This document shows, piece by piece, positions 22,183 through 64,000 of a DNA stretch of 64,000 bases. Source of the DNA: an uncultured beta proteobacterium (GTDB lineage Bacteria > Pseudomonadota > Gammaproteobacteria > Burkholderiales > Burkholderiaceae_C). The position numbers and the translations under genes are program-made. Location: positions 48,564 to 112,563 of the forward strand of contig CAVPMY010000012.1 in assembly GCA_963706685.1 (NCBI GenBank), given 5' to 3'. The notes beneath the pieces were generated by a model, which saw only the letters and a list, made by a program, of their open reading frames with translations, had not been told where the DNA came from and searched no databases. Numbering within the stretch: position 1 is the first letter of the stretch; each line of letters begins with the position of its first letter.

Positions 22183-22200
22183 CAACAAAGCAACGACAGC

Positions 22201-22222: not shown

Positions 22223-22236
22223 GCCGGGGCAGCGCC

Positions 22237-22755
22237 ATGGCCGAAACCTTTCACCGCTTCAACGATCGCCTGTACCAGTTCTGCATCTGGGTCTCGGCCA
22301 TCTCGATCGTCGTCATGTCGATGATCATCCCGTGGGGCATCTTTGCGCGCTACGTGCTCGGCACCGGCTCGCGCTGGCCCGAGCCGGTGGCGATCTTGCT
22401 GATGGTGCTGTTCACCTTTCTCGGCTCGGCGGTCAGCTACCGGGCCGGTGCGCACATCGCTGTCGCGATGCTCACCGACCGCCTGCCGGAGGGCATCGCG
22501 AAACCGCTGCGCGGCGTCATCCACCTGCTGATGCTGGCCGTGGCGCTGTTCATGTTGTATTACGGCACGACGCTGTGCATCGAAACCTGGCACCAGACCA
22601 TCGGCCAGTTGCCGTGGATGCCGGTCGGCCTGACCTACACGCCGGTGCCGATCGCCGGCTTCATCACCGCGCTGTTCGTCATCGAAGTGATCTTCTTCGG
22701 CAGCCAGAAACAACGCGAGGTGATCACGCTCGATCACCTCGCCGAAGAAGCCTGA
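22237..22755 (+). CDS. dctQ: TRAP transporter small permease (DctQ family)
   Basis: Intact 172-aa hydrophobic ORF in the expected position. Confidence 0.85.
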   Translation: MAETFHRFNDRLYQFCIWVSAISIVVMSMIIPWGIFARYVLGTGSRWPEPVAILLMVLFTFLGSAVSYRAGAHIAVAMLTDRLPEGIAKPLRGVIHLLMLAVALFMLYYGTTLCIETWHQTIGQLPWMPVGLTYTPVPIAGFITALFVIEVIFFGSQKQREVITLDHLAEEA

Positions 22756-22765
22756 GCGAGCTGAC

Positions 22766-24049
22766 ATGGACGCCTTCATCCTGCTCGGCTCGTTCGGGCT
22801 GCTGATCATCATCGGCATGCCGGTGGCCTACGCGATGGGCTTGTCGGCGCTGATCGGCGCGCTGTGGATCGACATCCCGATCGGCGCCATCATGATCCAG
22901 ATCGCCGCCGGGGTGAACAAGTTCTCGCTGCTGGCGATTCCCTTCTTCGTGCTCGCCGGCGCGATCATGGCCGAAGGCGGCATGGCGCGGCGCCTGGTCG
23001 CCTTCGCCGGCGTGCTGGTGGGTTTCATCCGCGGCGGGCTGTCGCTGGTCAACATCCTGGCATCGACGTTCTTCGGCGCCATCTCCGGCTCGTCGATGGC
23101 CGACACCGCGTCGATCGGTTCGGTGCTGATTCCCGAGATGGCCAAGAAGGGCTATCCGCGCGCCTTCGCCACCGCGGTCACCGTCAGCGGCTCGGTGCAG
23201 GCGATCCTGATCCCACCGTCGCACAACGCCGTCATCTACTCGCTGGCGGCTGGTGGTTCGGTCTCGATCGCGGCCCTGTTCGTCGCCGGCGTGCTGCCCG
23301 GCCTGCTGCTCGGCCTGACGCTGGCCGTGCTCTGCCTGTTCATCGCCAAGAAGAAGGACTTTCCGCGCGGCGAGCGCATCCCGCTCAAGCAGGCGCTGAA
23401 GATCTGCGCCGATGCGCTGTGGGGCCTGATGACGATGGTCATCATCCTCGGCGGCATCCTGTCGGGTGTGTTCACGGCCACCGAGTCGGCGGCGATTGCC
23501 GTCGTCTGGGCCTTCCTGGTGACGATGTTCATCTACCGCGACTACAAGTGGCGCGAGCTGCCCAAGCTGGCGCACCGCACGGTGAAGACGCTGTCGATCG
23601 TCATGATCCTGATCGGCTTTGCCGCGGCCTTCGGCTTCATCATGACGCTGATGCAGATTCCGCAGCACATCACCAATGCGTTCACGTCGGTATCCGACCA
23701 GCGCTGGGTCGTGCTGCTGATGATGAATGCGTTGCTGCTGATCCTGGGCACGCTGATGGACATGGCGCCGCTGATCCTGATCATGACGCCGATCCTGCTG
23801 CCGGTGGCGACGCAGCTTGGCGTCGACCCGGTGCAGTTCGGCATGATCATGATGGTCAACCTCGGCATGGGACTGATCACGCCGCCGGTCGGCGGCGTGC
23901 TGTTCGTCGGCAGCGCCATCGCCAAGGTGCCGATCGAGCAGGTCATCAAGGCGCTTTACCCGTTCTTCGGCGCGATGCTTTTCGTGCTGGCGCTGGTGAC
24001 CTATGTGCCGGCGATCTCACTCTGGCTGCCCGGGGTCTTTGGACTGTGA
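22766..24049 (+). CDS. dctM: TRAP transporter large permease (DctM family)
   Basis: Intact 427-aa polytopic ORF. Confidence 0.9.
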   Translation: MDAFILLGSFGLLIIIGMPVAYAMGLSALIGALWIDIPIGAIMIQIAAGVNKFSLLAIPFFVLAGAIMAEGGMARRLVAFAGVLVGFIRGGLSLVNILASTFFGAISGSSMADTASIGSVLIPEMAKKGYPRAFATAVTVSGSVQAILIPPSHNAVIYSLAAGGSVSIAALFVAGVLPGLLLGLTLAVLCLFIAKKKDFPRGERIPLKQALKICADALWGLMTMVIILGGILSGVFTATESAAIAVVWAFLVTMFIYRDYKWRELPKLAHRTVKTLSIVMILIGFAAAFGFIMTLMQIPQHITNAFTSVSDQRWVVLLMMNALLLILGTLMDMAPLILIMTPILLPVATQLGVDPVQFGMIMMVNLGMGLITPPVGGVLFVGSAIAKVPIEQVIKALYPFFGAMLFVLALVTYVPAISLWLPGVFGL

Positions 24050-29830: not shown

Positions 29831-30160
29831 GAAGCGGGCCAGACCGCCGCTGGCACAAGTCCCGAAAGGGCGTGCTGGAGGAAGGTCCGGACTGCACAGA
29901 GCAGCGTAGCGGCTAACGGCCGTCCACCGCGAGGTGAGGATCAGAGCAACAGAGACGAGTCGGGGCGGGTACGCCCGCCACGGGTGAAACGGGCAATCTC
30001 TACGCGCAGCAACACCAAATAGGCCGGCATCGATGTCGCTCGCGGAGCCGGCGGGTAGGTGGCACCGAGCCGTTCAGTGATGAACGGCCCAGATGAATGG
30101 CGGTCACGGCGAGGGGTCAAAGCCTCGCTGCACAGAATCCGGCCTACCGGCCTGCTTCAC
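29831..30160 (+). ncRNA. rnpB: RNase P RNA, bacterial type A
   Basis: Conserved core GGAGGAAGGUCCGGACUGCACAGAGCAG...GCGGCUAACGGCC, AGAGCAACAGAGAC, 3' ACAGAAUCCGGCCUACCGGCC. P1 pairing of 5' GAAGCGGGCC with 3' GGCCUGCUUC. Ends approximate. Confidence 0.9.
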
Positions 30161-30309
30161 ACTTTCTTGCGCCACCCTAGATTCGGCAGCGCGGCTCAAT
30201 CGGGTGCGTAGCGCTGTCACCCGAAGAGTGCGGGTGGCCGTAGGTGCATGGGTCCGTGTCCATGCAGTGCATGCAGCGAAGCAAAGCGGTCAACTGCCGA
30301 GGCTAAGGG

Positions 30310-46709: not shown

Positions 46710-49700
46710 ATGTTCCTGTCCAACTTCAGCGTCAAGCGGCCGATCGCGATGGTCGTCATCATCATCGGCCTGATGGGCCTGGGGCTGCTCGCGCTGTCCA
46801 AGCTGCGCGTCAACCAGTTCCCGGATATCGAGCCGCCGCTGCTGGTGGTGACGATCACCTACCCCGGTGCGTCGCCCGATACCGTCGAGCGCGAGATCGT
46901 GACCCGGCTCGACAAGCTGTTTTTGTCGATCTCCGGCGTCGACCGCCTGAACGCCACGGCCCGCGAAGGCAGCGCGCAGTTCCAGATCTTCTTCGCCTTC
47001 TCCAAGAACCTGATCGAGGCCGCCGACGAGGTGCGCAACGCCATCGGCACGGTGCGCTACAAGCTGCCGCTGGAGATCCGCGAGCCGGTGATCACGCGCG
47101 CCGACCCGGGCGCGCAGCCGATCATGCAAATCGCGCTGTCGTCGACGGTGCAAAGCCATGCCGACATCTCGCGCCTGGCCGAGGACACGCTGGCCGACCG
47201 CTTTCGCGGCTTGCCGGGCGTGTCCACCGTCAACGTCAACGGCGCGCTGCGGCGCGAGCTGTCGGTGCTGCTGCACGCTGCGAAGCTGCGCGAGTATTCG
47301 ATCTCGGTGGCCGAGATCGTCAACGCGCTGCGTGCACAGAACACCACGGCGCCGGTGGGCAAGGTGCGCGGCGCGCTGGAGGACCAGAGCATCCGCCTGG
47401 TCGGCCGCATCGAGACACCGTCCGAGTTCGAGCAGATCGTGGTCCGCCGCCGCGGCAGCGAGCTGCTGCGGCTCGGCCAGGTGGCCACCATCAGCGACGG
47501 CTTCGCCGAAGTCACCGGGCACTCGTTTCGCAGCGGCCGGCCCAATGTCGGCCTGTCGGTGGCGCGCTCGCGCGATGCCAGCACGGTCAGCGTCGCCAAC
47601 GAGGTGCGCAAGACCGTCGACGAGATCCGCAGGACGCTGCCTGCCGGCAGCGCGCTCGAGGTGACGCAGGACGGCGGCAAGGACGCACAGAACAGCCTGG
47701 ACAACGTCATCCACGCGCTGGCATTCGGCGCCGTGCTGACGGTGTTCGTGGTCTACATCTTCCTCAACTCGTGGCGCTCGACGCTGATCACCGCGCTGTC
47801 GCTGCCGACGTCGGTCATCGCCAGCTTCATCGCCGTCTGGCTGGCCGGCTTCACGCTCAACTTCATGAGCCTGCTCGGCCTGTCGCTGGCCATCGGCGTG
47901 CTGATCGACGACGCGATCGTCGTCCGCGAGAACATCGTGCGCCACCTCGAGCGCGGTGCCGATCGCGTCAGCGCGGCGCTCAACGGCACCGCCGAGATCG
48001 GGCTGGCCGTGGCCGCCACCACGTTCTCGATCGTCGCCGTGTTCGTGCCGGTGGCCTTCATGGACGGCATCTCGGGGCAGTGGTTCCGGCCGTTCGCGAT
48101 CACGGTCGTGGCCTCGGTGGCGGTCAGCCTGTTCATCTCGTTCACGCTCGACCCGATGCTGTCGGCCTACTGGGGCGACCCTCCCGGCCACCACAAAGCC
48201 ACCAGACACGGCTTCAGCCGTGTTCTCCAATCCTTCAATACCTGGTTCGACCACCAGGCCGACCGCTACGGCGACGTCATCGCCTGGGCGCTGCACCACC
48301 GGCGCTGGATGTTCTTCCTGGCCGTCGCCACCTTCGCCGCGGCCATTGGGCTGCAGTTCAAGTTCGGCGGCTCGAGCTTCCTGCCGGCGTCGGACGCGGG
48401 CGTGCTGGCCATCGACGTGCGCACACCGGCTTCGTCGAGCCTGGACTACGCGCGGCTCAAGGTCGAGGCCGCGTCGACCCTGGCCCGCACGTTGGCGGAG
48501 ACCAAGGCCACCAACAGTTATGTCAACCCGAACGGCGGCCGCGTCTACGTGGACATCGGCAAGAGCATCGCGCGCAAGCGCTCGCACCGCGAGATCGCCA
48601 AGGACCTGCGCGCGCTGACGGCGCGCCTGGTCGGCGCCGAGTACGTTGTGTTGGAGGACTTCAACCTCGGCGCGCAAAAGCCGGTGCAGGTGCGCTTCAC
48701 CGGCCCCGATTCGCGCCAGCTGCTCGAGATCACCAGCGAGTTCATGGCCAGGCTGCGCCAGGTGCCGGGCGCGGCCGATGTCGGCTTGTCCGAGCAGGAC
48801 CCGCAGAACGAACTCAAGATCGAGCTCGACCGCGGCCTGGCCAACGCGCTCGGCATCTCGGCCAACGACGCCGCGCAGGCGCTGCGCGTGGCTTTTGCCG
48901 GCGTCGAGGTCGGCGACTGGGTGGACCCGACCGGTGAAACGCGCGACGTGGCGGTGCGCCTGGCGCCGGAGGACCGCGTCGATGCCAGCAACATCGAGCG
49001 CCTGCCGGTGGCCGTCGGCGGCGCCAACCAGATCGTGCCGCTCGAGCAGATTGCCACCATCACCGTCGGCAAGGCGCCGAGCCAGATCCAGCACAGCGAC
49101 GGCAAGCGCCAGATCACCGTCTCGGCCAACGCCCAGGGCCGCTCGTCGGGCGAGGTCACCGCCGACGCGCTGAAGATCGCCAACGCCATGACCTACCCGC
49201 CGGGCTACGGGCTCGAGCTGGCCGGCGGCTCGCGCGACCAGCAGGAGGTGTTCGGCCGCATGGCCGTGGCGCTGGTGGCCGGCGTGATGCTGATGTACCT
49301 GATCCTGGTCGTGCAGTTCGGCAGCTTCACCGCGCCGCTGCCGGTGATGTTCTCGCTGCCGCTGTCGCTGATCGGCGTCGTCACGGCGCTGCTGCTGACC
49401 AGCAACACGCTCAACCTGATGAGCTTCATCGGCGTCATCATGCTGATGGGGCTGGTGGCCAAGAACGCCATCCTGCTGCTCGACGCCGCACGCAACGAGG
49501 AGCGCGCCGGCGTCGAGCGCGAAGAGGCGCTGATGCACGCCGGCCGCAAGCGCTTCCGGCCGATCCTGATGACCACCTTCGCGCTGGTCGCCGGCATGAT
49601 GCCGGTGGCCATCGGCGTCGGCGAGGGCGGCGAGTTCTACCGCCCGATGGCCGTGGCCATCATCGGCGGCGTCATCACCTCGACGCTGCTGACGCTGCTC

Positions 49701-49814
49701 GTCATCCCGAGCTTCTACGACTCGATCGAGATCTGGCGCGAGAAGTTCATGCGGCTGGTGACGCGGCTGCGCGGCAAGGCGGGCGTGAGCGCGGACGTGA
49801 TCGGCGCGAAGTAG
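46710..49814 (+). CDS. RND efflux inner-membrane transporter (AcrB/AcrD/AcrF family)
   Basis: Intact 1034-aa ORF, 12 TM with two large periplasmic loops. Confidence 0.9.
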
Positions 49815-50016
49815 CAGTGCCGGTCCGCGCGCCGGCAGACCCTGCGGCGGCTGCAGCTCGAACCCAGCTGCGCCCACGGGCAGCGTGGCCGTTTCCAACA
49901 TCGACCAAGCCCTGAAAACCGGCCCTCTTTACCGAAGCTTCACACACGGCCGACATACGCGAAATGCTGCAGTGCACAATTGATCTTCACTCTACAGCCC
50001 ACGCTGATCAGCCCAC

Positions 50017-51513
50017 ATGAAGCCGAGAATGGCACCGCGCTCCGCCCGCCCGATGGGCCCAAGACTTTGGCCCATCGCCTTGGCCGTCTTGTTGACAGCC
50101 TGCGCCAGCTTGCCGGACCCCGCGGCGACAGAGATGCCGAGAGATGTGCCGACGCAATGGTCAACCGGCGCGGCACGCGCAGGTGAATCGGCCACTGACT
50201 TGTCCGCCTGGTGGCAACGCTTCGACGATCCCGCCCTCGCCGACTTGATCACCAAGGCACTCGAGGCCAACACCAGCGTGCAGAGCGCGCAGGCGGCGCT
50301 GCGCCAGTCACGTGCGCTGGCCGAGGTGGCGCGAGCGGGCCTGAGCCCATCGGTGAGCGTTTCGGGATCGGCGCAACGCAGTCGATCGGACAGCAGCGGC
50401 ACCAGCAATGCGTTCAGGGCCAGCGTGGGCGCCAGCTGGGAGCCCGACCTCTTCGGTGGCAACCGCGCTGCGGCCAACGCCAGCGAAACCGACGCGCAGG
50501 CCTCGGCCGCCAGCCTGGCGAGCGTGCAGGTATCCCTCGCCGCCGAGGTGGCGTCCAGCTACATCAACCTGCGCGGCCTGCAGGCCCGGCTGGCCATTGC
50601 GCGCAGCAATCTGGCCACACAAACCGAAACGCTGCAGATCACACGCTGGCGTGCCCAGGCCGGTCTGGTCTCGTCGCTGGACGTGGAGCAGGCAGTCAGC
50701 GCCGCCGAACAGACGCAGGCCCAGATTCCCGCGCTGCAAACCAGCGTGGCCCAGACCTTGAACGCGCTGGCCGTGCTGACCGGGCAAGCCCCGGGTACGT
50801 TGAACACCACCTTGGGCGACGCCGCACCGATCCCGCCCGCCCCGGCCGATCTGGCCCTGGCCTTTCCCGCCGACACGCTGCGCCAGCGGCCCGACGTGCG
50901 CGCCGCCGAGCTGAAGGTGCGCTCGGCGTGGTCGCGCGTGGCGGTGGCCGATGCGGCGCGCTACCCGAGCTTCAGCCTGAGTGGCTCGCTCGGCCTTTCG
51001 TCGCTGACGCTGGGCAGCCTCACCGACAGCGCGTCGCTGGTCAGGTCGCTGCTGGCCAGCGTGTCGGCGCCGCTGTTCGACGGCGGCGCAGCCCAGGCCC
51101 AGGTGCGTGCCCAGGAAGCGGCGCTGGACCAGGCCCGTGCGAGCTACCGCGACACCGTGCTCACCGCACTGCAGGACGTGGAGGACGCACTGGTCGCCAT
51201 CCAGGGTGACAGCGAGCGTCTGATGCGGCTGCAGGCCGCTGCCACCGCCGCGGCCAACGCCGAGCTGCTGGCACGCCAGCGCTACGAGAGCGGCCTGATC
51301 GATTTCGCCACCGTGCTCGGCACGCAGCGCACCCTGCTGTCGGCCCAGGACAGCGTGGCCATCACGCAGGCCAGCCTGAGTGCCAACCACGTTCGTCTGT
51401 ACAGGGCGCTGGGCGGTGGCTGGACGCCCGACAGCGCATCCGGCGCCCCCATCGCCCCCGTCGCCACCTCGCCAGCGACGGTCCGCCGGACGAGCCACGC
51501 CGTTGCGAACTGA
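50017..51513 (+). CDS. outer-membrane efflux lipoprotein (NodT/OprM family)
   Basis: Intact 498-aa ORF. Lipobox LLTAC. Two-repeat OMF architecture. The start may be at a later Met. Confidence 0.85.
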   Translation: MKPRMAPRSARPMGPRLWPIALAVLLTACASLPDPAATEMPRDVPTQWSTGAARAGESATDLSAWWQRFDDPALADLITKALEANTSVQSAQAALRQSRALAEVARAGLSPSVSVSGSAQRSRSDSSGTSNAFRASVGASWEPDLFGGNRAAANASETDAQASAASLASVQVSLAAEVASSYINLRGLQARLAIARSNLATQTETLQITRWRAQAGLVSSLDVEQAVSAAEQTQAQIPALQTSVAQTLNALAVLTGQAPGTLNTTLGDAAPIPPAPADLALAFPADTLRQRPDVRAAELKVRSAWSRVAVADAARYPSFSLSGSLGLSSLTLGSLTDSASLVRSLLASVSAPLFDGGAAQAQVRAQEAALDQARASYRDTVLTALQDVEDALVAIQGDSERLMRLQAAATAAANAELLARQRYESGLIDFATVLGTQRTLLSAQDSVAITQASLSANHVRLYRALGGGWTPDSASGAPIAPVATSPATVRRTSHAVAN

Positions 51514-51529
51514 CACCCACTGCCACGCC

Positions 51530-52834
51530 ATGAACAAGAAAACCGCCCCTCCCACCGACCTGCAAACCCTGCTGGGCGAGGACCATCCGCCGCGCTGGTG
51601 GCAGCGCAGTTCGCTCTGGATCGGCCTGGTCGCCCTGCTGATCGTGGCCGGCGGTGTCTACTACTGGCAGGCACAAAGCGCCAGCAAGGCCGCGCCCGCT
51701 TACGTGACCACCGAGCTGCGCAAGGGCCATCTCACGCTCAGCGTCTCGGCCAACGGCACGCTGCAGCCGACGCGCTCGGTGAATGTCGGCAGCGAGCTCT
51801 CGGGCACGGTCAAGCGCGTGCTGGTGGACGTGAACGACCGCGTCAAGGCTGGCCAGGTGATGGTGGAGCTGGATGCGTCGAAGTTCAGCGACCAGGTGAC
51901 CCGCTCGCGCGCCTCGCTCGCCGCCGCGCAGGCCCAGCTCGCGCAGAGCAAGGCCACCGTCACCGAATCCCGCGCCAGCCTGGCGCGCCTGGAGGAAGTC
52001 TTCAAGCTCTCGGGCGGCAAGGTGCCTTCGGCCGACCGAACTCGACACCGCGCGCGCCGCGCTGGCGCGCGCCGAGGCCAACGAAGCCAGCGCCGGTGCC
52101 AACGTCGGCGTGGCCAAGGCCACGCTCTCGACGGATGAGACCAATCTCTCCAAGGCCTCGATCCGCTCGCCCATCGACGGCGTGGTGCTCAGCCGCTCGG
52201 TCGATCCGGGCAACGCGGTGGCCGCGTCGCTGCAGGCCGTGACCTTGTTCACCGTGGCCGAGAACCTGACCCAGCTGCAGCTCGAAGCCAGCGTCGACGA
52301 GGCCGACGTGGGCTCGGTGAAGGAAGGGCAGAAGGCCAGCTTCACCGTCAGCGCCTACCCCTCGCGCCGTTTCCCGGCCACCATCAGCCGCGTGGCCTTC
52401 GGCTCGACCACCACCAACAACGTGGTGACCTACGTGGCCACGCTCGACGTGGACAACCAGGACCTCGCCCTGCGCCCCGGCATGACGGCGGTGGCCACCA
52501 TCGTCGCGACCGAGCGCAACGATGTGCTGCTGGTGCCCAACACCGCGCTGCGCTTCTCGCCCACCACGGCCGCCGCGGCGAGCACCTCTTCGGGCGGAAG
52601 CAGCATCCTGTCCAAGATGATGCCGCGCCCGCCGCGCAGCAGCAGCACCAAGGTGGCCGGCACCGAGAGCAAGGCCCCGGGCACGCGCCAGATCTGGGTG
52701 CTGCAGGACGGCCAGCCGGTGGCCGTGCAGGTGCAGACCGGCATCAGCGACGGCCGCATGACCGAGGTCAGCGGCGACCAGCTCAGGCCCGGCATGGCCG
52801 TCATCACCGACCAGCGCAGCGCAGGCGCCGCATC

Positions 52835-52838
<4 letters not shown>
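51530..52838 (+). pseudogene. HlyD/MacA-family periplasmic adaptor, 1 frame break
   Basis: MNKKTAPPTDLQ...LEEVFKLSGGKVPS / ELDTARAALARAEANEAS...IRSPIDGVVLSR... in two frames. Break near 52038. Confidence 0.8.
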
Positions 52839-53604
<766 letters not shown>

Positions 53605-53606
53605 CC

Positions 53607-54815
53607 ATGTGGCTCAACACGCTCCTGCTCGCGTTGCGTTCGATCCGGCGCAACCTGATGCGCTCCTTCCTCACCATCCTGGGCATCGTGATCGGCGTCA
53701 GCGCGGTCATCACGATGGTCACGGTGGGCAACGGCGCCACCGTGTCGGTGCAGAACCAGATCTCGGGGCTGGGCACCAACCTGTTGCAGGTCCGCCCGGG
53801 CCAGCGCATGGGTCCGGGCAGCGGCAGTTCCAGCGCGCCCTTCTTCAAGGACGGCGACGCCGAGGCCATCGCCACCCAGATCGGTGGCGTCGCGGCCGCA
53901 GCCCCCCAATCGCGCACGGGCGGCACGCTGGTGGCCAACGGCCGCAACTGGGCCAGCACCATCACCGGCAGCACCAACGAGTGGCTCAGCATCGGCAACT
54001 GGACGCTGGCCCAGGGGCGCGAGTTCTCCGACGCCGAGCAGCGCGCCGGCGCGGCGGTCTGCATGATCGGCGAGACCGTGCGGCGCGAACTGTTCGGCAG
54101 CAGCCCGGCGCTGGGCGAGTCGCTGCGCGTCAAGCAGATCAGCTGCGAGATCATCGCCGTGCTCGGCTCCAAGGGGCAGGGGTCGTTCGGCAACGACCAG
54201 GACGACCTGGTCTTCATGCCGATCAAGACGCTGCAGCGTCGCATCACCGGCAATACCCAGGTCAACGACTTGCTCGTGTCGATGGCCGATGGCAGCGACA
54301 GCACGCGCGTCAAGGCCAGCATGACGCAGCTGCTGCGCGAGCGCCGCAAGCTGGCCGACACCGACGAAGACAACTTCAACGTGCTCGACACCAAGCAGCT
54401 GGCCGATACGCTCTCGGGCACGACCAAGGTGATGACCACGCTGCTCGGTGCCGTGGCCGCGGTGAGCCTGCTGGTGGGCGGCATCGGCATCATGAACATC
54501 ATGCTGGTCAGCGTCACCGAGCGCACCCGCGAGATCGGCCTGCGCCTGGCCATCGGCGCGCTGGAGCGCGAGGTGCTGCTGCAGTTCCTGATCGAGGCCG
54601 TGGTGCTGGCCGCGCTGGGCGGACTGATCGGCATCGTGCTCGCCACCGCCGCCTCGATCGGCCTGTCGGGCTTGATGAACGTGCCCTACGCGTTCAACCC
54701 CGGCGTCAACCTGCTGAGCTTCGTCTTCTCGGCCGGCATCGGCGTGCTGTTCGGCTACTTCCCGGCCCGCCGGGCGGCGCGGCTGAACCCGATCGACGCG
54801 CTGCGGCACGAGTGA
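53607..54815 (+). CDS. ABC exporter permease (FtsX/MacB-type)
   Basis: ATG 53607, three nt after the ATPase TGA. Intact 402 aa. MacB periplasmic domain plus FtsX TM helices ([21 protein letters not shown]). Confidence 0.85.
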
Positions 54816-54893
54816 GTGACGGGCCGCGCCGCCGCGTCACGGACCCCCTCGTTGCAGGTGGTCACCGAGGCGCCCGGCACAAGCGCTCGTTCG

Positions 54894-56708
54894 TCAGTCC
54901 TCACCGCGACTGGCTGCATTGGTCGCCGGCGCGGGCGCGAAGCAGACGACGCTCCAACCCGCCTCCAGCTTGAAGCGTTGCTCCTTGGAGTTCAGGCGCA
55001 GCGTGCCGCTCGGTGAGACGCCCGCCAGCAACAGCCAGTCTTGGCCAGGTTTGCCCATGCGGGCCTTCAACGCGGCCCAGCCATAGCTCGGGGTGAGCTT
55101 GGACGTCTGAATGGTCCAGCCGTCGTCCATGTGCTGGTGCAGGACCTGGAAGTTCGCTTGCGGGTCGAAGGCGTCGTAGCCGCGTTGCTGCAGCGACATG
55201 CTTCTCAGCCCCTGGCCGGAGGCCTTGTGGGTGGCGAGCTGGAAGGTGCGGTGGTGGCCGAACCTGCGGCCCTGGGCCTTGCAGACCAGCGCGTTGTAGA
55301 AGTCGTTGTCGGTGGCGCACAGCAGGTGGTTCAGGTGCTGTGCTTCCAATGTGTGCTCAGCGTGATCGGACAGGATTTCGCCGTAGTAGACCTCGAGGCC
55401 CGCCATGCGCGCTTCCTTCAAGTGGTGGTACACACCGTCGACGATCAAGACCTCGATTCCGAGCTTGTTCAGCGCTTTCGCCAAGGCGCAGGACCAGCGC
55501 GTCGCACCGACGATCAGCAGGCCGTTGTCGCTCTTGGCGGCCAGGCCCAGCCGCCGGGCCAGGCGGCCGATGCTCAGGCCATGCGCGAGCACCGTGGCAA
55601 TGATGACCAGGAAGGTCACGGGCAGCAGCAGTTCGGCGTCCGGGTAGCCGGCAGCCACCAGCGCCGGCCCGAAGATGCCTGCCGTGGCGGCGGCGACGAT
55701 GCCGCGGGGCGCGATCCATGCGAGCAGCAGCTTGTCCTGCTTGCGCATCGGCGCGCCGATCGTGGCCAGGCCGATGGCGAGCGGCCGCACGATCAACAGG
55801 ATCGCCAGCACGAACCACAGCACGCGCCAGTTCAGCAGCTCGAGCTGGCTGACGTGCAGCTGTGACGGAATGACGATGAACAGCACCGACAACAGCAGCA
55901 CGGTCAGGCTTTCCTTGAAGCGCTGCAGCACTTCGCGCTCGGTCAGCTTCATGTTGCCGACGACGACGCCCATGACGGTGACGCTGAGCAGGCCGGCCTC
56001 GTGCTGCACCAGGTTGCTGACCCAGTAGACCGCCAGCACCAGCACCATCAGGATCGGCGGCTTCAGATGCTCCGGGACCACACCCCGCCGGTACATCCGG
56101 CCGGTGATCCACCCGCCCAGCCCGCCGAGCAGTGCAGCCGCGGCAACGGCAGCGGCCAGGCCGCTCAAGGTGTCGGCCAGCCCGCCGCCGGAAATGGTCA
56201 GGTACTGGAAGGTCAACACGGCCAGCAACACGCCCACGGGGTCGTTGACGATGCCTTCCCACTTCAGCAGCGAGGCCGACTCCTTGTTCAGCCGCGCCTG
56301 CCGCAGCAGCGGCAAGATGACGGTGGGGCCGGTGACCACCAGGATCGAGCCGAGCACCACGGCCACCGGCCAGCTCAAGCCGGCGAGGTAGTGGGCCGCC
56401 AGGCTGCCCAGCAACCAGGCCAGCGGCGGACCGACGATGGTCAAGCGGCCGATGCCATGGCCGACGCGACGAAACTCGGCGAGCTTCAGATCCATGCCGC
56501 CTTCGAACAGGATGATGGCCACGCCCAGGCCGATCAGATCGGCCAGTTCGGTCCGCGACAGCTGCAGTTCGATGACACCGGTCACCGGCCCCAGCACGAG
56601 CCCGGTGGCGATGAGCACGACGATGGCCGGCAGACCGAGCCGCCACGAGACCCACTGGCTGGCCAGCCCGGCCGCCAGCACGATCAGAAGCAGGGTTGCC
56701 GCATCCAT
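54894..56708 (-). CDS. CPA1-family Na+(K+)/H+ antiporter with C-terminal RCK/TrkA-N-like domain
   Basis: Intact 604-aa ORF. About 12 TM N-terminal exchanger domain. LLIVGATRW Rossmann-like segment. Confidence 0.85.
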   Translation of the reverse strand: MDAATLLLIVLAAGLASQWVSWRLGLPAIVVLIATGLVLGPVTGVIELQLSRTELADLIGLGVAIILFEGGMDLKLAEFRRVGHGIGRLTIVGPPLAWLLGSLAAHYLAGLSWPVAVVLGSILVVTGPTVILPLLRQARLNKESASLLKWEGIVNDPVGVLLAVLTFQYLTISGGGLADTLSGLAAAVAAAALLGGLGGWITGRMYRRGVVPEHLKPPILMVLVLAVYWVSNLVQHEAGLLSVTVMGVVVGNMKLTEREVLQRFKESLTVLLLSVLFIVIPSQLHVSQLELLNWRVLWFVLAILLIVRPLAIGLATIGAPMRKQDKLLLAWIAPRGIVAAATAGIFGPALVAAGYPDAELLLPVTFLVIIATVLAHGLSIGRLARRLGLAAKSDNGLLIVGATRWSCALAKALNKLGIEVLIVDGVYHHLKEARMAGLEVYYGEILSDHAEHTLEAQHLNHLLCATDNDFYNALVCKAQGRRFGHHRTFQLATHKASGQGLRSMSLQQRGYDAFDPQANFQVLHQHMDDGWTIQTSKLTPSYGWAALKARMGKPGQDWLLLAGVSPSGTLRLNSKEQRFKLEAGWSVVCFAPAPATNAASRGED

Positions 56709-56842
56709 GAGGGTTGGCTGTCCTCAGGCACGCCGCCTGGAACGCATGCCAGCGTGATCGCGGTTCAGAACGCGGCGCTCGGCTCGACCATCAGCTTGCC
56801 GGATCTGTCTTTGAACAAGGGCGCCTCCTGGGCAAAAAAGAA

Positions 56843-56858
56843 GGTCAACGCGTTGACC
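56843..56858. promoter_or_regulatory. perfect 16-bp palindrome GGTCAACGCGTTGACC in the antiporter/c-subunit divergent region
   Basis: Followed by an AT-rich TTGAATATAT. Conserved in the mirror copy at 62685-62700. Function unknown (operator candidate). Confidence 0.35.
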
Positions 56859-57101
56859 TGGATGCTTGAATATATCGGGCCGCCCTGCGGCGTCGGCAGG
56901 GCCGGCTTCGCAGATGCTTCGCCAACCTTGACCTTTCGACGGTCATCGCAGGTCGAAGTCAACAGGTCTGCGCTGCCACTCGCTGGCGGCCCCGATGCAA
57001 CTCCCTTGCCCCGGCGAGATGTTGCGCGTTCCGGCGGCCACCGCGCCGACGCTACCTGCGAGGTAATCGACAGCATGAACGGCGCGCGTCACAGTACCCC
57101 C

Positions 57102-57336
57102 ATGGCGCACATAGCAAATTCTCCCGCTGGCCGTCGCGCTCGTGATCGGCATCCCCGCGTGTGGATCGTGCATCGGCATCGGCCTGGCGTCGATGAAGCT
57201 TCTCGAAGGCGTGGCGCGCCAGCCCTTGCTCGCGAGCGAGCTGCAGATCAAGTACTTCCTGGCCGTGGGCGTCACTGACGGCGCCTTCATCATCGCCACC
57301 GGCATCGGCCTGTGGTTTGCTACGGCCAACCCGTTC
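57102..57336 (+). pseudogene. F-type ATPase c-subunit-like gene, left copy; N-terminal frameshift, cut off at the GC switch
   Basis: ATG 57102 (MAHIANS...) is out of frame with IGIPACGSCIGIGLASMKLLEGVARQPLLASELQIKYFLAVGVTDGAFIIATGIGLWFATANPF (frame of ORF 57142..57468). c-subunit hallmarks LEGxARQP loop and helix-2 Asp. Confidence 0.7.
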
Positions 57337-58299
57337 CCGAAAGAAAAGGATTATCTGACCAGTGCCTCACCCTTTGCTCAAAAAGGTGCACCAGTACAAG
57401 CACCTATTGGATTTTCTTATGATCCAAACCCAATCGGAAATCTATGGCCTCTAATCCACTCGCAGTAGACAAAACTCTTATTATCGGAGGCAGACGCGCG
57501 GCAATTACAGCTCCCTCAGATATTTGTTTTGGTTGGAAAACATAGACCCCGAGCTCAACTGGAATAGATATAGAGGAACTACGTAAAAGCAGTACGCTTA
57601 CAAGAATGGCTCGAAAAAAATGCAAGAGCAGGATCACGTCAACGTGTCAATCGAAGCACACTTCGCCGAACGAGTACCGGATTATACAGCTCAACGCCCC
57701 GTTTATCTTGGTGGCGGAAAAGTCCCTGTACAAATTTCGGAAGTATTACAAACATCTACTTCCGGGATACGCAAAATGTTCTCAGTCTCTGTAACTCCTC
57801 AAGGAAATATGAGGACACGGGATTGCTGTAGCTAAACACCAATCGGTTCAAAATCGCTTTACCGACATGGATGGGTAATCGTATTATGTCCGTTACTGCA
57901 GCACCTTGAACGTTGTTGGACACGCCTCGATAAATTCGATTATATGTGGCCGGAATTCGCTCAACTTGAGAACAGGAAGTTCTTAACAAAGAAGCCTACT
58001 TCGATTGGAGTAACCTTGAAAAAGATGATGATACCTTCGGTTATCAATCTCGCTATGCCGACCTAAAATATCGGAACTCACAAGTCTGGAAACTTCAAAG
58101 ACACATTAGCCTACTGGCAATTCCCGCTAAGGAATATCGCCTCTGCGCCTGCACTAAACTCTGACTTTGTTACATCAAATCCGCGAGAGGATATATTCGC
58201 GGTTATCGACGAGGACGTCGACAACCTTTGATGTTCAATATTTTCAACAATGTCAAAGCTATTCGCAAGATGCCTTATCACAACGTGCCTACTCTTTAG
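57337..58299 (+). pseudogene. Microviridae major capsid protein VP1/F, C-terminal ~55%, left copy, many frame breaks
   Basis: KDYLTSASPFAQKGAPVQAPIGF; IEAHFAERVPDYTAQRPVYLGGGKVPVQISEVLQTS; VTPQGNM; DDTFGYQSRYADLKYRNSQV; ends NVPTL-TAG at 58297-99. About 40% G+C. Confidence 0.75.
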
Positions 58300-58484
58300 A
58301 CCTGCGCAACTTACACAGCATCCTTTTACACTAAACACAATTTCTCTGTTGCCTCACGGTCACAGGGCAGGAGTGTTTTTACACGACGCACACCCGGGAG
58401 ATCCGTGCGGATGCCTCGCCAGAAATAAATGGAGCTACAGCACCATGTTATTTTGGTGAAGCTATAACTACAAAAAACAACACA

Positions 58485-58968
58485 ATGGAAAATCAATATC
58501 GCAAATGTCGCCTTATGTTCGGCCACTAACTGATGAGATGCTCGAAACACAACACACAGCCTCCTTACAATACGTAATGGGAGAGGCTTATTCTATTCAG
58601 GAACTCATCGACAAATAGTCCCATTGATATGTCAAAATCAAACAGGGTTACACTATGCAGATGATGCCGGATTATGATACGTTCGTTCCAGACCCGGACT
58701 TCGATCTACAGATGCTGAAAACTTGGCTAAAAATTCAGCAGAAACAATCGCGGAAGCCAAGCTCAAAATGGACGAGTCCTCCAAGAAAAGAAAGAAGCAT
58801 TCTGGGGACACGGAAGCGAGTAAACCAAAGTGAAAGTAACCTCAGAAAAAGCTTAACTCTTACCGAGTACGAAAATCCAAAAAACGAGCTTAAAACGCCC
58901 AATGATTAAAAGCCTCACACTTATTGACAGGATCGACAAAAAAAGAACGTATCTTTCACTCAAAATAA
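58485..58968 (+). pseudogene. small phage protein (possible internal scaffolding protein), left copy, frame-broken
   Basis: MENQYRK..., DYDTFVPDPDFDL, Lys/Glu/Ser-rich tail. Better preserved in the right arm. Confidence 0.4.
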
Positions 58969-58975
58969 ACTAAAA

Positions 58976-59677
58976 TATGCCTCGGAATCTGGTGGACAAA
59001 TAGCCCTACAAGGTGGCGTAGATATCGCCTCAGGAGTACTCGGAAAAACTCGTTCAAAAAAAACGCAACATTAGATTACAGAAAGAAGCCAACTTAGAAC
59101 TTGCAAATTATGCATACGATAAAGACCTTTCTAATGTGGGGATCTTCAGAACCTTTATAATTCTCCGCAAGCAGACCCGCTTTAAACAAGCAGGTCTAAA
59201 TCCTAACTTAATATACGGACAAGGAAATGCTGGAAATGCATCCTCTTGTCCCCAAGAATGGACAGGTGCAACAATCACTACATACGACACGAGTACCAAA
59301 ACTAAACATACTTGGAAACGCAAACAATCAGTGACAAGTGGAAGCTGGATTGCAAAAAAACCGAAGCTGAAACAGACAGGATCAAAGCAACTGATACTAC
59401 AGTCGGTATCTATAGATGAGCAAATAAATATGTGGAACTTAACAATGCTCGCCTTGCCTTTTGGCAAACTGGCGGAAAACCAATGTGTCGTAGGTATGGC
59501 AAAACCTTGCTGTTAACCCGTATAACTATGACTATTGCAACTCGATGTTAATGCAGCGCAAGTTGGATTCACAACTAATTATCAACAACCTAACAGCAAA
59601 AAAACAAATGTTGTTAGATGCAAACATCGAGAATGCATGGCAAAACCTAAAAATGAACCAACGGAAATATGCATGCA
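58976..59677 (+). pseudogene. Microviridae minor capsid/pilot protein VP2, N-terminal part, left copy, frame-broken
   Basis: ELANYAYDKDLS..., RFKQAGLNPNLIYGQGNAGNAS, KLDSQLIINNLTAKKQMLLDANIENAWQNLKMNQ. Confidence 0.65.
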
Positions 59678-59777
59678 CAATTCCCATCAACAAGGATGTA
59701 GCTTTTCCGATTCCGACTGCTCCGAGTGCTGTCTTTGCGGCTGTATTGACCATACCGAATCCTTGTTGATAGGGATA
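59678..59777. other. unique ~100-nt centre (loop) of the inverted repeat
   Basis: Arms end at ...gaaatatgcatg (59677) and resume at catgcatatttc (59778). On the minus strand the loop continues the VP2 frame (WYPYQQGFGMVNTAAKTALGAVGIGKATSLLMGI). Confidence 0.8.
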
Positions 59778-60480
59778 CCATGCATATTTCTGTTGGTTCA
59801 TTTTTAGGTTTTGCCATGCATTCTCGATGTTTGCATCTAACAACATTTGTTTTTTTGCTGTTAGGTTGTTGATAATTAGTTGTGAATCCAACTTGCGCTG
59901 CATTGACGTTCCGAGATTGCGATAGTCATAGTTATACGGGTTTAGCACAGTTTTGCCATACCTACGAGACATTGGTTTTCCGCCAGTTTGCCAAAAGGCA
60001 AGGCGAGCATTGTTAAGTTCCACATCTATTGCTGTAGAGAGCATACTGACTGCTGAAGAGCAATCCAGTTCTTTCAATCCTGTCTGTTTCAGCTTCGGTT
60101 TTTTCGAATCCAGCTTCCACTTGTCGCTGATTGTTATACATTCCGAGTATGTTTAGTTTTGGTACTCGTGTCGTATGTAGTGATTGTTGCACCTGTCCCA
60201 TTCTTGGGGACGAGGATGCATTTCCAGCATTTCCTTGTCCGTATATTAAGTTAGGATTTAGACCTGCTTGTTTAAAGCGGGTCATTTGTGCTTGCGGAAC
60301 AAATGGCGATAAAGGTTCTGAAGATGCCACATAGAAAGGTCTTTATCGTATGCATAATTTGCAAGTTCTAAGTTGGCTTCTTTGTAATCTAAATGATCGT
60401 TTGGAACAAATTCTCCGACTACTCCTGAGGATATCTACGCCACCTTGTAGGGCTATTTGTCCACCGGGTCCGAGAGGCAT
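59678..60480 (-). pseudogene. Microviridae VP2 pilot protein, right copy plus loop; truncated at the fold-back point
   Basis: ATG 60480. ...ELANYAYDKDLSMW, SPFVPQAQMTRFKQAGLNPNLIYGQGNAGNASS, ...MQRKLDSQLIINNLTAKKQMLLDANIENAWQNLKMNQQKYAWYPYQQGFGMVNTAAK. A few frame breaks. Confidence 0.7.
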
Positions 60481-60488
60481 ATTTTAGT

Positions 60489-61020
60489 TTATTTTGAGTG
60501 AAAGATACGTTCTTTTTTTGTTGATCCTGTCAGAAAGTGTAATATACCATCAAGTCGTTGGTATATTACACTATGTGTGAGGCTTTTAATCATTGGGCGT
60601 TTTAGCTCGTTTTTTGGACTTTCGTCCTCAGTTAAGGTTGAGCTTTCTGAGGTTATTTTTGCTTCCGTTTTACTCGCTTCAGTGTCCCCAGAATGCTTCT
60701 TTCTTTTCTTGGAGGACTCGTCCATTTTGAGCTTGGCTTCCGCGATTGTTTCTGCTGAATCTTTAGCCAAGTTTTCAGCATCTGTTAGATCGAAGTCCGG
60801 GTCTGGAACGAACGTATCATAATCCGCATCATCTGCGTAGTAACCCTGTTTGATTTTGACGAGCGTGTCTATTGGGAATCCGTTGTTTGGGGGATGGTTC
60901 GAATAGTTCCTGAATAGAATAAGCCTCTCCCGGTACGGTAAGAGAGGGCTGTGTGTTGTGTTCGAGCATCTCATCAGTTAGTGGCCGAACATAAGGCGAT
61001 TTGCGATATTGATTTTCCAT
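60489..61020 (-). pseudogene. small phage protein (possible scaffolding protein), right copy, 1 frame break
   Basis: MENQYRKSPYVRPLTDEMLEHNTQPSLTVPGEAYSIQELF / ...GFPIDTLVKIKQGYYADDADYDTFVPDPDFDLTDAENLAKDSAETIAEAKLKMDESSKKRKK... Confidence 0.4.
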
Positions 61021-61210
61021 TGTGTTGTTTTTTGTAGTTATAGCTTCTCACTGAAAATAACATGGTGCTGTAGCTCCATTTATTTCTGGCGAGGCATCCG
61101 CACGGATCTCCGGCGTGCGTCGTGTAAAAACACTCCTGCCCTGTGACCGTGAGGCAACAGAGAAAAAGTGTTTAGTGTAAAAGGATGCTGTGTAAGTCAC
61201 TGCGCAGCTG

Positions 61211-62206
61211 CTAAAGAGTAGGCACGTTGTGATAAGGCATCTTGCGAATAGCTTTGACATTGTTGAATACTTGAACATAAAGGTTGTCAACATCCTCGTC
61301 GATAACCGCGAATATATCCTCTCGCGGATTTGATGTAACAAAGTCAGAGTTTAGTGCAGGCGCAGAAAGGCGAAGATCCCTTCTGAAGTGCCAGTAGGCT
61401 AATGTGTCTTTGAAGTTTCCAGAGACTTGTGAGTTCCGATATTTTAGGTCGGCATAGCGAGATTGATAACCGAAGGTATCATCATTGTTTTCAAGGTTAC
61501 TCCAAATCGAAGTAGGCTTCTTTGTTAAGAACTTCCTGTTCTCCAAGTTGAGCGAATTCTGGCCACATGTTCGAACGGATCGAGGTGTGTCCAACAACGT
61601 TGAAGGTGCTGCTGATATGCAGAGCGTGGGGTAACGGACATAATACCGATTACCCATCCATGTTCGGTAGAAAAGCGAGATTTGAACCGATTGGTGTTTC
61701 CTACAGCAATACCGTGTCCACTCATATTTCCTTGAGGAGTTACAGAGACTGAGAGGTTTCTGTATCCGGAAGTAGATGTTTTCTGTAATACTTCCGAAAT
61801 TTGTACAGGGACTTTTCCGCCACCAAAGATAAACGGGGCGTTGAGCTGTATAATCCGGTACTCGTTCGGCGAAGTGTGCTTCAATAAATACTCACGTAAA
61901 ACGTGATCCTGCTCTTGCATTTTTTTGAGCCATTCTTGTAAGCGTACTGCTTTACGTAGTTCCTCTATATCTATTCCAGTTGACTCGGGGTCTATGTTTT
62001 CCAGTACGTAAAGCTGAACCTGAGGGAGCTGTAATTGCCGCGCCGTCTGCTCCGATAATAAGAGTTTTGTCTACTGCGAGTGGATTGCCGAGGCCATCAG
62101 TTCCGATTGGGTTTGGATCATAAAGAAATCCAATAGGTGCTTGTACTGGTGCACCTTTTTGAGCAAAGGGTAAGGCACTGGTCAGATAATCCTTTTCCCA
62201 GTTTCG
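61211..62206 (-). pseudogene. Microviridae major capsid protein VP1/F, C-terminal part, right copy, several frame breaks
   Basis: NWEKDYLTSALPFAQKGAPVQAPIGF; TPQGNMSGHGIAVGNTNRF..EHGWVIGIMSVTPRSAYQQ; NDDTFGYQSRYADLKYRNSQVSGNFKDTLAYWHF...NPREDIFAVIDEDVDNLYVQVFNNVKAIRKMPYHNVPTL. Confidence 0.8.
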
Positions 62207-62441
62207 GGAACGGGTTGGCCGTAGCAAACCACAGGCCGATGCCGGTGGCGATGATGAAGGCGCCGTCAGTGACGCCCACGGCCAGGAAGTACTCGATCTG
62301 CAGCTCGCTCGCGAGCAAGGGCTGGCGCGCCACGCCTTCGAGAAGCTTCATCGACGCCAGGCCGATGCCGATGCACGATCCACACGCGGGGATGCCTATT
62401 ATGAGCGCGACGGCCAGCGGGAGAATGTCTATGTGCGCCAT
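62207..62441 (-). CDS. F-type ATPase c-subunit-like gene, right copy; intact frame but fused to phage DNA at its last codons
   Basis: MAHIDILPLAVALIIGIPACGSCIGIGLASMKLLEGVARQPLLASELQIEYFLAVGVTDGAFIIATGIGLWFATANPF, then reads into VP1-derived sequence. Contains ATA ATA codons, unusual for this GC content. Confidence 0.6.
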
Positions 62442-62833
62442 GGGGGTACCGCGACGCGCGCCGTTCATGCTGTCGATTACCTCGCAGGTAGCGTCGGCGC
62501 GGTGGCCGCCGGAGCGGCGACACATCTCGCCGGGGCGGAAACTGCATCGGGGGCCGCCAGCGAGTGGCAGCGCAGACCTGTCGACTTCGACCTGCGATGA
62601 CCGTCGAAAGGTCAAGGTTGGTGAAGCATCTGCGAAGCCGGCCCTGCCGACGCCGCAGGGCGGCCCGATATATTCAAGCATCCAGGTCAACGCGTTGACC
62701 TTCTTTTTTGCCCAGGAGGCGCCCTTGTTCAAAGACAAGTACCGCAAGCTGATGGTCGAGCCGAGCGCCGCGTTTGAACCGCGATCACGCTGGCATGCGT
62801 TCCAGGCGGCGTGCCGAAGGACAGCCAACCCTC

Positions 62834-64000
62834 ATGCATGCCGCCACCCTGCTGCTGATCGTGCTGGCCGCCGGGCTGGCCAGCCAGTGGCTGGCCTGGC
62901 GGATCCGGCTGCCGGCGATCGTCGTGCTGATCGCCGCCGGCCTGGTGCTCGGGCCGGTGCACCGGCGTCATCGAGCTGAGCTGTCGCAGGACCGAACTGA
63001 CCGAGCTGATCGGCCTGGGCGTGGCGATCATCCTGTTCGAAGGCGGCATGGACCTGAAGCTGGGCGAGTTCCGCCGCGTCGGCCACGGCATCGGCCGGCT
63101 GACCATCGTCGGCCCGCCGCTGGCCTGGCTGTTCGGCAGCCTGGCGGCGCACTACGTCGCCGGCCTGAGCTGGCCGGTGGCCGTCGGTGCTCGGCGCGAT
63201 CCTGGTCGTCACCGGCCCGACCGTGATCCTGCCGCTGCTGCGCCAGGCGCGGCTGAACAAGGAATCGGCCTCGCTGCTGAAGTGGGAAGGCATCGTCAAC
63301 GACCCGGTCGGCGTGCTGCTGGCGGTGCTGACCTTCCAGTACCTGACGATCGGCGGCGGGCTGGCGCGACACCGCTGATGCGGCGCTGGGCGCGGCGATC
63401 GCCGCCGCCGCCGTGCTCGGCGGGCTCGGCGGCTGGGTCACCGGCTGGCTGTACCGGCGCGGCGCGCGTGCCCGAGCACCTGAAGGCGCCGATCCTGATG
63501 GTGCTGGTGCTGGTGGTCTACTGGGCCAGCAACCTGGTGCAGCACGAGGCCGGCCTGCTCAGCGTCACGCTGATGGGCGCTGGTGATCGGCAACATGAAG
63601 CTGGTCGAACTGCGAGTCGCTGCAGCGCTTCAAGGAGAACCTGACGGTGGTGCTGCTGTCGGTGCTGTTCATCGTCATCCCGTCGCAGCTGCAGGCCAGC
63701 CAGCTCGACGCTGCTGGACTGGCGCGTGCTGCTGTTCGTGCTGCGCGATCCTGTTCGTCGTGCGGCCGCTGACGATCGGCGCTGGCGACGATCGGCGCGC
63801 CGATGCGCAGCGAGGACAAGCTGCTGCTCGGCTGGATCGCGCCGCGCGGCATCGTCGCCGCGGCCACCGCCGGCATCTTCGGGCCGGCGCTGGTGGCCGC
63901 CGGCTACCCCGACGCCGACACTGCTGCTGCCGGTGACCTTCGCGGTCATCATCGCCACCGTGCTGGCGCACGGCCTGAGCATCGGCCGCGCTCGCGCGCC
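62834..64000 (+). pseudogene. diverged, heavily frame-broken inverted copy of the CPA1 antiporter (5' ~1.2 kb; continues beyond the window)
   Basis: MHAATLLLIVLAAGLASQWLAWRIRLPAIVVLIAAGLVLGPV / AIILFEGGMDLKLGEFRRVGHGIGRLTIVGPPLAWLFGSLAAHY / ILVVTGPTVILPLLRQARLNKESASLLKWEGIVNDPVGVLLAVLTFQYLTI... scattered over all three frames. Confidence 0.8.

Follow-up and report, generated by a model that had tools for sequence, protein, structure and literature searches.

The last 8.4 kb of a 64-kb stretch of an uncultured Burkholderiales genome (GenBank assembly GCA_963706685.1, contig CAVPMY010000012.1, positions 48,564 to 112,563; the whole 64,000-nucleotide [nt] stretch is here called the window) carry two mirrored copies of a cation:proton antiporter gene. 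The left copy is intact and the right copy is riddled with frameshifts, yet the two differ mainly at synonymous sites, as had been pointed out in an earlier note made from the letters of the window alone. This raises the question of what process could produce both kinds of change in one copy of a gene. Very probably, a chimeric fold-back read extended the contig, and the right antiporter was overwritten with the orthologue alleles of other members of the sampled community. The explanation is technical and not biological: there is no second antiporter, pseudogene, prophage or genomic palindrome to explain.

Architecture of the inverted repeat

The window is bacterial DNA of ∼68% GC in which reading frames are long and intact. 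BLAST comparison with its own reverse complement returned one segment, from 55,563 to 63,989 (88.25% identity over 8,648 columns), and no other repeat was found within the window. The right arm of this inverted repeat is truncated by the window end. The arms are reverse complements about a single centre at ∼59,727, with a short unpaired turn of ∼60 nt (59,698 to 59,756), as expected of a fold-back. From left to right, the order is the antiporter gene (minus strand), a 393-nt intergenic region, a divergent gene for an ATP-synthase c subunit, a junction, microvirus DNA and the turn, followed by the same elements in mirror order. The landmarks of the first arm, including the accidental junction, are therefore all mirrored in the second. 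The features of the two arms are as follows.

54,894 to 56,708, minus strand: CPA1-type cation:proton antiporter gene (left copy, referred to as A), 604 amino acids (aa), intact; Pfam Na_H_Exchanger (1.6e−42) and TrkA_N (5.3e−08)
56,709 to 57,101: intergenic region, left copy, between the antiporter and the divergent c-subunit gene
57,102 to 57,342, plus strand: ATP-synthase c-subunit-like gene, left copy (Pfam ATP-synt_C), with a one-base frameshift at ∼57,115
57,342/57,343: junction of bacterial (68% GC) and microvirus (42% GC) DNA in the left arm, visible in the GC profile and present in both arms
57,343 to 59,675, plus strand: microvirus fragment, left arm, noisy and shifting frame several times (Pfam Phage_F, PHROG 514 and pilot-protein PHROGs)
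57,343 to 58,296, plus strand: capsid protein (VP1/F) from ∼residue 180 to its end, followed by an unassigned stretch
From ∼59,178, plus strand: part of the DNA pilot protein gene (pilot-protein PHROGs)
59,676 to 59,778: palindrome centre and fold-back turn, inside the pilot-protein gene
59,779 to 62,201, minus strand: microvirus fragment, right arm, the same sequence reversed with a different set of indels
62,202 to 62,441, minus strand: c-subunit gene, right copy, N terminus intact, reading through into phage DNA
62,468 to 62,118, minus strand: false c-subunit/phage fusion P0123, 116 aa, called in the public annotation of the source contig
62,442 to 62,833: intergenic region, right copy, near-identical to the left copy
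62,834 to 64,000, plus strand: right (mirror) antiporter copy, first 1,156 nt, ending at the window end; an A-type backbone in which consensus alleles of other lineages have largely taken over

The mirror junction in the right arm lies at 62,197 to 62,202 and has four extra bases (CTGG) that the left arm does not carry; because the arms differ there by 4 nt, any microhomology at the chimeric junction cannot be pinned down. On the bacterial side, the junction falls in the last codons of the c-subunit gene, homologues of which stop one or two residues past the motif ANPF. On the phage side, it falls at approximately residue 180 to 185 of a 507-aa capsid protein. In the phage fragment, a Microviridae major capsid protein is represented by its C-terminal two-thirds and a pilot protein only in part, residues ∼66 to 107 of 325 being the only ones matched. 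The closest known capsids share 46 to 62% identity (46 to 53% in INPHARED and 62% in a single IMG/VR contig, L168), and no nucleotide match longer than ∼70 nt was identified; the source of the fragment is an undescribed small microvirus. Database entries for the antiporter (P0001) and for the right-arm protein P0123 come from a single 120,488-nt NCBI/ENA contig, and the structure is thus already in the public record.

Divergence between the arms differs by segment

A computed alignment of the two antiporter copies showed 89.7% identity, with 120 substitutions over 1,156 nt distributed over codon positions 1, 2 and 3 as 33, 11 and 76. The earlier note had counted by hand ∼43 differing codons among the first ∼150, with roughly two-thirds of the changes silent; the alignment gave 41, of which 29 were synonymous and 26 differed at the third position only. 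Over the whole copy, 73 of the 109 differing codons were synonymous. Nei-Gojobori estimates were 0.30 for synonymous divergence (dS) and 0.049 for nonsynonymous divergence (dN), and a dN/dS ratio of 0.165 is what purifying selection on a real second copy would leave. Substitutions from left to right were biased toward G or C (27 T>C versus 4 C>T), and GC content at third codon positions (GC3) was 0.917 in the left copy and 0.977 to 0.982 in the right. In the alignment columns at which the copies differ, eight relatives agreed with the right arm in 118 of 154. Together with the dN/dS ratio, this bears out the view that the substitutions are not random read error. The frame disruptions, put at "at least 8" by eye, were more numerous: the right copy has 17 one-base insertions, three one-base deletions and one three-base deletion, the last being an in-frame gap common to seven of the eight relatives.

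In the intergenic and c-subunit segment (56,709 to 57,338), the arms share 96.6% identity, with 21 mismatches and, over 632 columns, five gap events (0.79 per 100). The greater likeness of this segment compared with the coding region, noticed earlier by eye, is therefore real, and a real second copy would have flanks at least as diverged as its coding sequence. Divergence sets in abruptly at the gene: the adjoining 200 nt have 23 mismatches on the inner side and 6 on the upstream side (Fisher p = 0.0016). The copies first differ at gene position 4, no more than 3 nt from the ATG. Comparison with contig L161, an independent Joint Genome Institute (JGI) contig of the A lineage, gave the opposite and normal pattern, with faster divergence in non-coding than in coding DNA: over the 185 nt adjoining the antiporter ATG, identity to the upstream region of L161 is 78%, versus 94.8% within the coding region. 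No homology was found between these 185 nt and the upstream regions of relatives other than L161; in those nearest the right copy, the upstream position is taken by an EncFtn-like gene, and the DNA there is not homologous to the window. Neither arm is perfectly polished in this segment. The frameshift near the start of the left c-subunit gene is visible against both the right arm and homologues, and the right arm has likely errors of its own at positions corresponding to 57,142 to 57,148 and 57,250 of the left arm.

The microvirus arms differ in yet another way, by indels and short scrambled blocks, as had been reported for 57,519 to 57,536 versus 62,001 to 62,020, which are among them. Identity at aligned bases is 95.9%, and 95 gap events of up to 32 nt occur in 2,486 columns (3.82 per 100 columns). 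Frame switches were identified in both arms by tblastn with the proteins of MH572379.1. This is read-type noise of the kind expected of a fold-back where no other reads support the arms. No close microvirus reference from which to estimate the error of each arm was found in INPHARED or IMG/VR. The three segments differ in kind, and none of the differences between them is due to chance.

The right antiporter copy is a centroid of its relatives

After frame correction, the right copy had no private nucleotide states, whereas each of 16 real sequences had between 10 and 54. Its identity to the majority consensus of 14 relatives was 93.3%, compared with 81 to 87% for real sequences. At each of the three codon positions it was, on average, closer to the other lineages than any other sequence was; its terminal branch was short, and its GC3 (0.982) was the highest. 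At sites where the left copy departs from the consensus, the right copy has the consensus state in 16 of 17 cases when that state has a frequency of ≥0.9 among the relatives, in 37 of 50 at 0.7 to 0.9 and in 39 of 81 at 0.5 to 0.7. In Tajima relative-rate tests with two high-GC outgroups, L012 and L004, the right copy showed roughly one unique change for every two in each of 10 real lineages (p = 1.9e−2 to 4e−8). As a control, all 28 pairs of real lineages, including those with the left copy, were clock-like (p ≥ 0.096).

A consensus called from a mixed pile-up should have no private states, lie closest to the consensus of its relatives and fail to behave as a clock, and the right copy does all three. 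A real second copy, evolving as an independent lineage, should carry private substitutions, of which the right copy has none. From these sequence comparisons, the right copy is best described as the centroid of its relatives and not as the gene of one organism. At the protein level, among 119 relatives, the median number of private states was 2.5 and 11 sequences including the right copy had none; this panel was chosen by similarity to the right copy and is biased, and the comparison was non-discriminating and not used as evidence.

A second, intact antiporter locus matching the right arm, which the earlier note had proposed to look for, was not found. GTDB species-representative genomes, metagenome contigs and a 5.8-billion-protein collection held no intact counterpart with >90% aa identity, the rest of the source metagenome-assembled genome lying outside the search, and the best protein matches to the right copy shared 87 to 90% aa identity.

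Frameshifts are pairs of alleles side by side

The inserted bases are not random. Of the 17, 16 matched an alternative allele of the column directly beside them, counting as alternative any allele carried there by two or more of 16 homologues; the mean under the null was 4.7, and none of 5,000 permutations reached 16. No relative of eight has a base in any of the one-base insertion columns (14 in that alignment). Site by site, the base kept was usually the allele of the left copy and the inserted base the alternative of the relatives, and in at least seven cases the kept base was a minority allele of the left copy and the inserted base the majority allele of the relatives. Five examples, with positions in the gene, are as follows.

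Position 126: G kept, C inserted; relatives have C in nine and G in four
Position 742: G kept, C inserted; relatives have C in 10 and G in two
Position 779: T kept, C inserted; relatives have C in 14 of 14
Position 939: C kept, G inserted; relatives have G in 11
Position 970: C kept, G inserted; relatives have G in 10

At 94 other sites, the consensus (foreign) allele stands in place of the allele of the left copy. Indels in the right copy were also enriched in regions variable among relatives, but they are clustered, and the p-value of this enrichment is therefore overstated. Indel artefacts at polymorphic sites with both alleles retained are what a consensus of a mixed pile-up would leave. 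The frameshifts thus differ in nature from the substitutions, as the earlier note had sensed, in that the inserted bases are second alleles placed beside those of the left copy. Since alleles of the left copy were kept with foreign alleles beside them, the right arm must have begun as a copy of the genome of the left arm, as a fold-back predicts. It was then edited toward a mixture of alleles from other organisms.

Proposed origin of the right arm

In the proposed course of events, a long read would run from genuine genome sequence through an artificial junction into a 2.4-kb internal fragment of an unrelated microvirus, turn back and continue as the reverse complement of the same molecule. 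One or very few reads would carry this fold-back, and the reads available for consensus calling and polishing would differ by segment. The microvirus DNA and both junctions would be backed by the chimeric read alone, leaving raw long-read noise in both arms. Both arms of the intergenic and c-subunit segment would stem from one genome and so be near-identical apart from residual errors. The left antiporter would be covered by the genome's own anchored reads and emerge as a clean, intact gene. The right antiporter, by contrast, would attract orthologue reads from other community members, and its consensus would drift to the centroid of community alleles, so that its changes would be mostly synonymous. 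Because foreign reads would align only within the coding region, from the ATG, only that region would be overwritten and the intergenic region spared. The pattern described earlier as the reverse of neutral expectation holds, but its cause would be technical and not evolutionary. Where a new allele was written in without removal of the old base, a one-base insertion and a frameshift would result, and 17 such doublets would have been left unresolved. The suspicion that no single simple mechanism could explain all three patterns was well placed. The recruitment of reads, the sequencing platform and the polisher are inferred.

Several points weigh against this explanation. The relatives used in the centroid tests came from public databases and not from this sample, and the relative-rate signal was weak with L010, a compositionally distant outgroup. 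Coverage, the number of reads spanning the centre and the composition of the right-arm pile-up are inferred. The preference of foreign reads for the right arm is not obvious a priori; positive feedback over successive polishing rounds is assumed. The frameshift at ∼57,115 in the left c-subunit gene remains, even though the genome's own reads should have polished it, which suggests that coverage was thin there or that this segment was also backed mainly by the chimeric read. Finally, Oxford Nanopore Technologies (ONT) ligation, rapid and PCR, PacBio SMRTbell and Illumina adapters were locally aligned to 55,000 to 64,000; they matched there no better than in the remaining DNA of the window, with no match at the centre or the junction. 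An adapter or hairpin at the turn is expected only for the missed-adapter and unsplit-duplex subtypes of fold-back. The fold-back may have arisen by library ligation, by template switching during multiple displacement amplification (MDA) or as an unsplit duplex read. A resemblance of 62,001 to 62,020 to an ONT adapter was also considered and was not supported by the adapter alignments.

Alternative explanations

A simple account would have the fold-back read come from one related organism of the sample, B (another species or strain), and overlap the abundant genome A by way of the antiporter common to both. The left arm would have been corrected to A by the reads of A, and the right arm would remain a single noisy read of the real orthologue of B, with raw read errors as its frameshifts. 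The dN/dS of 0.165 and substituted states that match those in relatives fit such a read, as do the placement of the right copy as sister to A and L161 in a neighbor-joining tree (62% bootstrap) and the presence of errors in both arms of the intergenic and c-subunit segment, which a single read would produce. However, a real lineage ∼10% diverged from its nearest neighbor should have private changes and a clock-like branch, and the right copy has neither; raw read errors would add private states, and there are none. Random read errors also cannot yield insertions of which 16 of 17 equal the adjacent alternative allele, often beside the minority allele of A. In addition, A and B would have to be 96.6% alike in intergenic DNA and 10% apart in coding DNA, the opposite of what is seen with L161. 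On this evidence, an organism B is an improbable source. In another account, every difference between the arms of one molecule, substitutions included, is sequencing error. This is true of the microvirus arms and is probably true of most of the segment made up of the intergenic region and the c-subunit gene. Random error cannot produce the codon-position distribution, the synonymous excess or the agreement of relatives with the right arm seen in the antiporter, where it is refuted, and as an explanation of the whole structure it deserves next to no credence.

Among biological explanations, a real inverted chromosomal duplication around a captured microvirus fragment could have left the right copy as a decaying pseudogene or an imported recombinant allele, with gene conversion in the flank. 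The structure is in a deposited contig, P0123 was called from its right arm, and large palindromes and gene conversion between inverted repeats exist in bacteria. Approximately 20 frame-breaking indels are nevertheless incompatible with decay at the dN/dS observed; a pseudogene should have a ratio near 1 and indels unrelated to the polymorphisms of other lineages, and here insertions outnumber deletions (17:4) and the indels track sites that are polymorphic in other lineages. Homologous recombination cannot cross over at the ATG without upstream homology in the donor lineages, and an allele recombined in from the same species was rejected on the same ground, as the crossover would need to be at the ATG and there is no donor homology there. 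The microvirus arms carry different disabling indels (≤32 nt), the phage fragment breaks off within the capsid gene and within the pilot gene, and its 42% GC DNA lies within a 68% GC host. A duplication of this kind is very unlikely. The signature of purifying selection that the earlier note recognised was confirmed, and its reading as a paralogue or an orthologue from another strain was not, given the absence of private states, the proximity to the consensus, the failure of the relative-rate tests and the doublets. There is hardly any probability that a linear replicon ends here in a covalently closed hairpin or that a microvirus prophage is integrated. Reads rounding a hairpin telomere do give fold-back contig ends, and Microviridae prophages are known in some bacteria. 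A hairpin should, however, give arms that are exact complements, and 88% identity was observed; the turn lies within a phage gene. An integrated prophage should be a near-complete genome with dif-like sites in non-coding phage DNA. The window has an internal 2.4-kb fragment with no capsid N terminus, replication gene, attachment site or remainder of the pilot gene, and the junction lies in coding sequence.

There is also a slim chance that the palindrome was a real cellular molecule, formed, for example, when a broken chromosome end by the c-subunit gene captured a piece of replicative-form DNA of the microvirus and underwent fold-back (hairpin-primed) replication, a rare product that was then sequenced a single time. 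Such a molecule would be direct evidence of this microvirus inside this Burkholderiales host. Even then, the right-arm antiporter would remain a consensus artefact.

Comparison with known artefacts and consequences

The proposed fold-back chimera, with its right antiporter overwritten by a mixed consensus, can be compared with several known systems. Fold-back, or inverted-repeat, chimeric reads are a documented artefact of long-read sequencing with both ONT and PacBio (Heinz, Meyerson & Li 2026, PMC12870357), and they accounted for 0.18 to 7.33% of the reads when ONT ligation libraries were examined (Xie et al. 2026, PMC13141652). As in those reads, a molecule here was apparently read in one direction and, after a single turn, as its own reverse complement, giving a false palindrome. 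The two papers concern individual reads and the structural variants falsely called from them, whereas here the read would lie inside a deposited metagenome contig, with a second, inter-genome chimeric junction and a second arm altered by consensus. Small circular single-stranded DNA genomes such as those of Microviridae are over-amplified by MDA, which would explain the partner DNA. Chimeras are a known problem of MDA-amplified DNA (review, PMC9984789) and likewise combine an illegitimate junction of unrelated templates with an inverted segment, but no sign in the sequence indicates that MDA was used.

The right antiporter resembles a collapsed cross-strain consensus, in which a majority allele is taken from a mixed pile-up to give a centroid-like sequence that is no one organism's, with indels at points of disagreement. 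Normally, however, the dominant strain wins in such a consensus; here, a duplicate template without the reads of its own genome would have drawn in foreign orthologue reads, rewriting was confined to the coding region, and both alleles stand in tandem at 17 sites. With a real paralogue or orthologue the right copy shares the synonymous excess, the low dN/dS and the in-frame 3-nt gap seen in relatives. It is unlike one in having no private changes, no clock-like behavior, flanks closer than the coding region and no intact counterpart among the collections searched.

From 57,343 onward, the deposited 120,488-nt contig would accordingly be false over at least 6.7 kb, and the false 116-aa fusion protein P0123 is already in protein collections. 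The apparent link between a microvirus and a Burkholderiales host would mislead host prediction, and the apparent frameshifted paralogue would inflate counts of pseudogenes and duplications. In practice, the record should be trimmed at 57,342 and the protein at 62,468 to 62,118 withdrawn from it, and both the fusion protein and the phage-host link should be distrusted. The absence of private states, relative-rate failure and insertions of neighboring alleles can be reused as diagnostics on suspect duplicates in long-read metagenome assemblies.

The left antiporter gene and its relatives

The left antiporter is a genuine gene of the assembled Burkholderiales genome. It is full length, with the Na_H_Exchanger membrane domain and a C-terminal TrkA_N/RCK domain typical of CPA1 antiporters, and it is clock-like in relative-rate tests. 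Its closest relatives are in Burkholderiales metagenome-assembled genomes, and it shares 96% aa and 94.8% nt identity with the antiporter on L161. An exact look-up of its protein found no record.

Several relatives carry a 95-aa EncFtn-like (encapsulated-ferritin-like) gene that precedes the antiporter by ∼60 nt in the same orientation. This gene is absent upstream of the antiporter in the window lineage and in L161, where the neighbor beyond the shared 185 nt is a cysteine dioxygenase gene. The EncFtn-like genes, all on the same strand as the antiporter, are located as follows.

Contig L162: 4,651 to 4,938
Contig L163: 939 to 1,226
Contig L164: 4,666 to 4,875, truncated to 69 aa
Contig L165: 289 to 576

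Downstream of the antiporter, the window has ∼5 kb that includes a MacB-like ATP-binding cassette (ABC) transporter gene (52,971 to 54,815), versus 2.2 kb of unrelated sequence in L161 (window 49,649 to 54,850 compared with L161 7,860 to 10,200); homology restarts at window position 49,814 (95.8%). With unlike DNA both upstream and downstream in the two contigs, the antiporter lies between two variable flanks.

The intergenic region and the c-subunit gene

An 18-nt perfect palindrome, AGGTCAACGCGTTGACCT, lies at 56,842 to 56,859, ∼135 to 150 nt upstream of the antiporter start, with its mirror copy at 62,684 to 62,701. It is exact in L161 (∼5,850 to 5,867), where the surroundings are only 78% identical, and it looks like an operator site. 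An open frame at 56,765 to 56,830 (minus strand) has a counterpart in L161 (∼5,890 to 5,950) with a common stop, the products ending in EPSAAF and APGAAF, respectively; this could be a conserved small upstream open reading frame or merely conserved non-coding sequence.

The product of the c-subunit gene is 86 to 87% identical to stand-alone c subunits of 79 to 80 aa from Rhodoferax and Burkholderiaceae, and these ATP-synt_C homologues sit outside atp operons. In contig L166, the gene (4,001 to 4,240) lies between a DUF2164 gene and a major facilitator superfamily transporter gene, downstream of a P-type cation ATPase, whereas in the window it adjoins a cation:proton antiporter. None of 160 related loci had a c-subunit gene near the antiporter. 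That this proximity might be a further chimeric junction was considered and dropped, given the existence of a stand-alone c-subunit family and the 185-nt homology to L161; the c-subunit gene is natural at this locus.

Elsewhere in the window, no tRNA genes were found in the 64 kb. An RNase P RNA of bacterial class A was identified at 29,831 to 30,162 on the plus strand (Rfam RF00010, 204.8 bits), and a mild dip in GC content was seen from 20,001 to 24,000 (0.644 to 0.650 versus ∼0.68 elsewhere).

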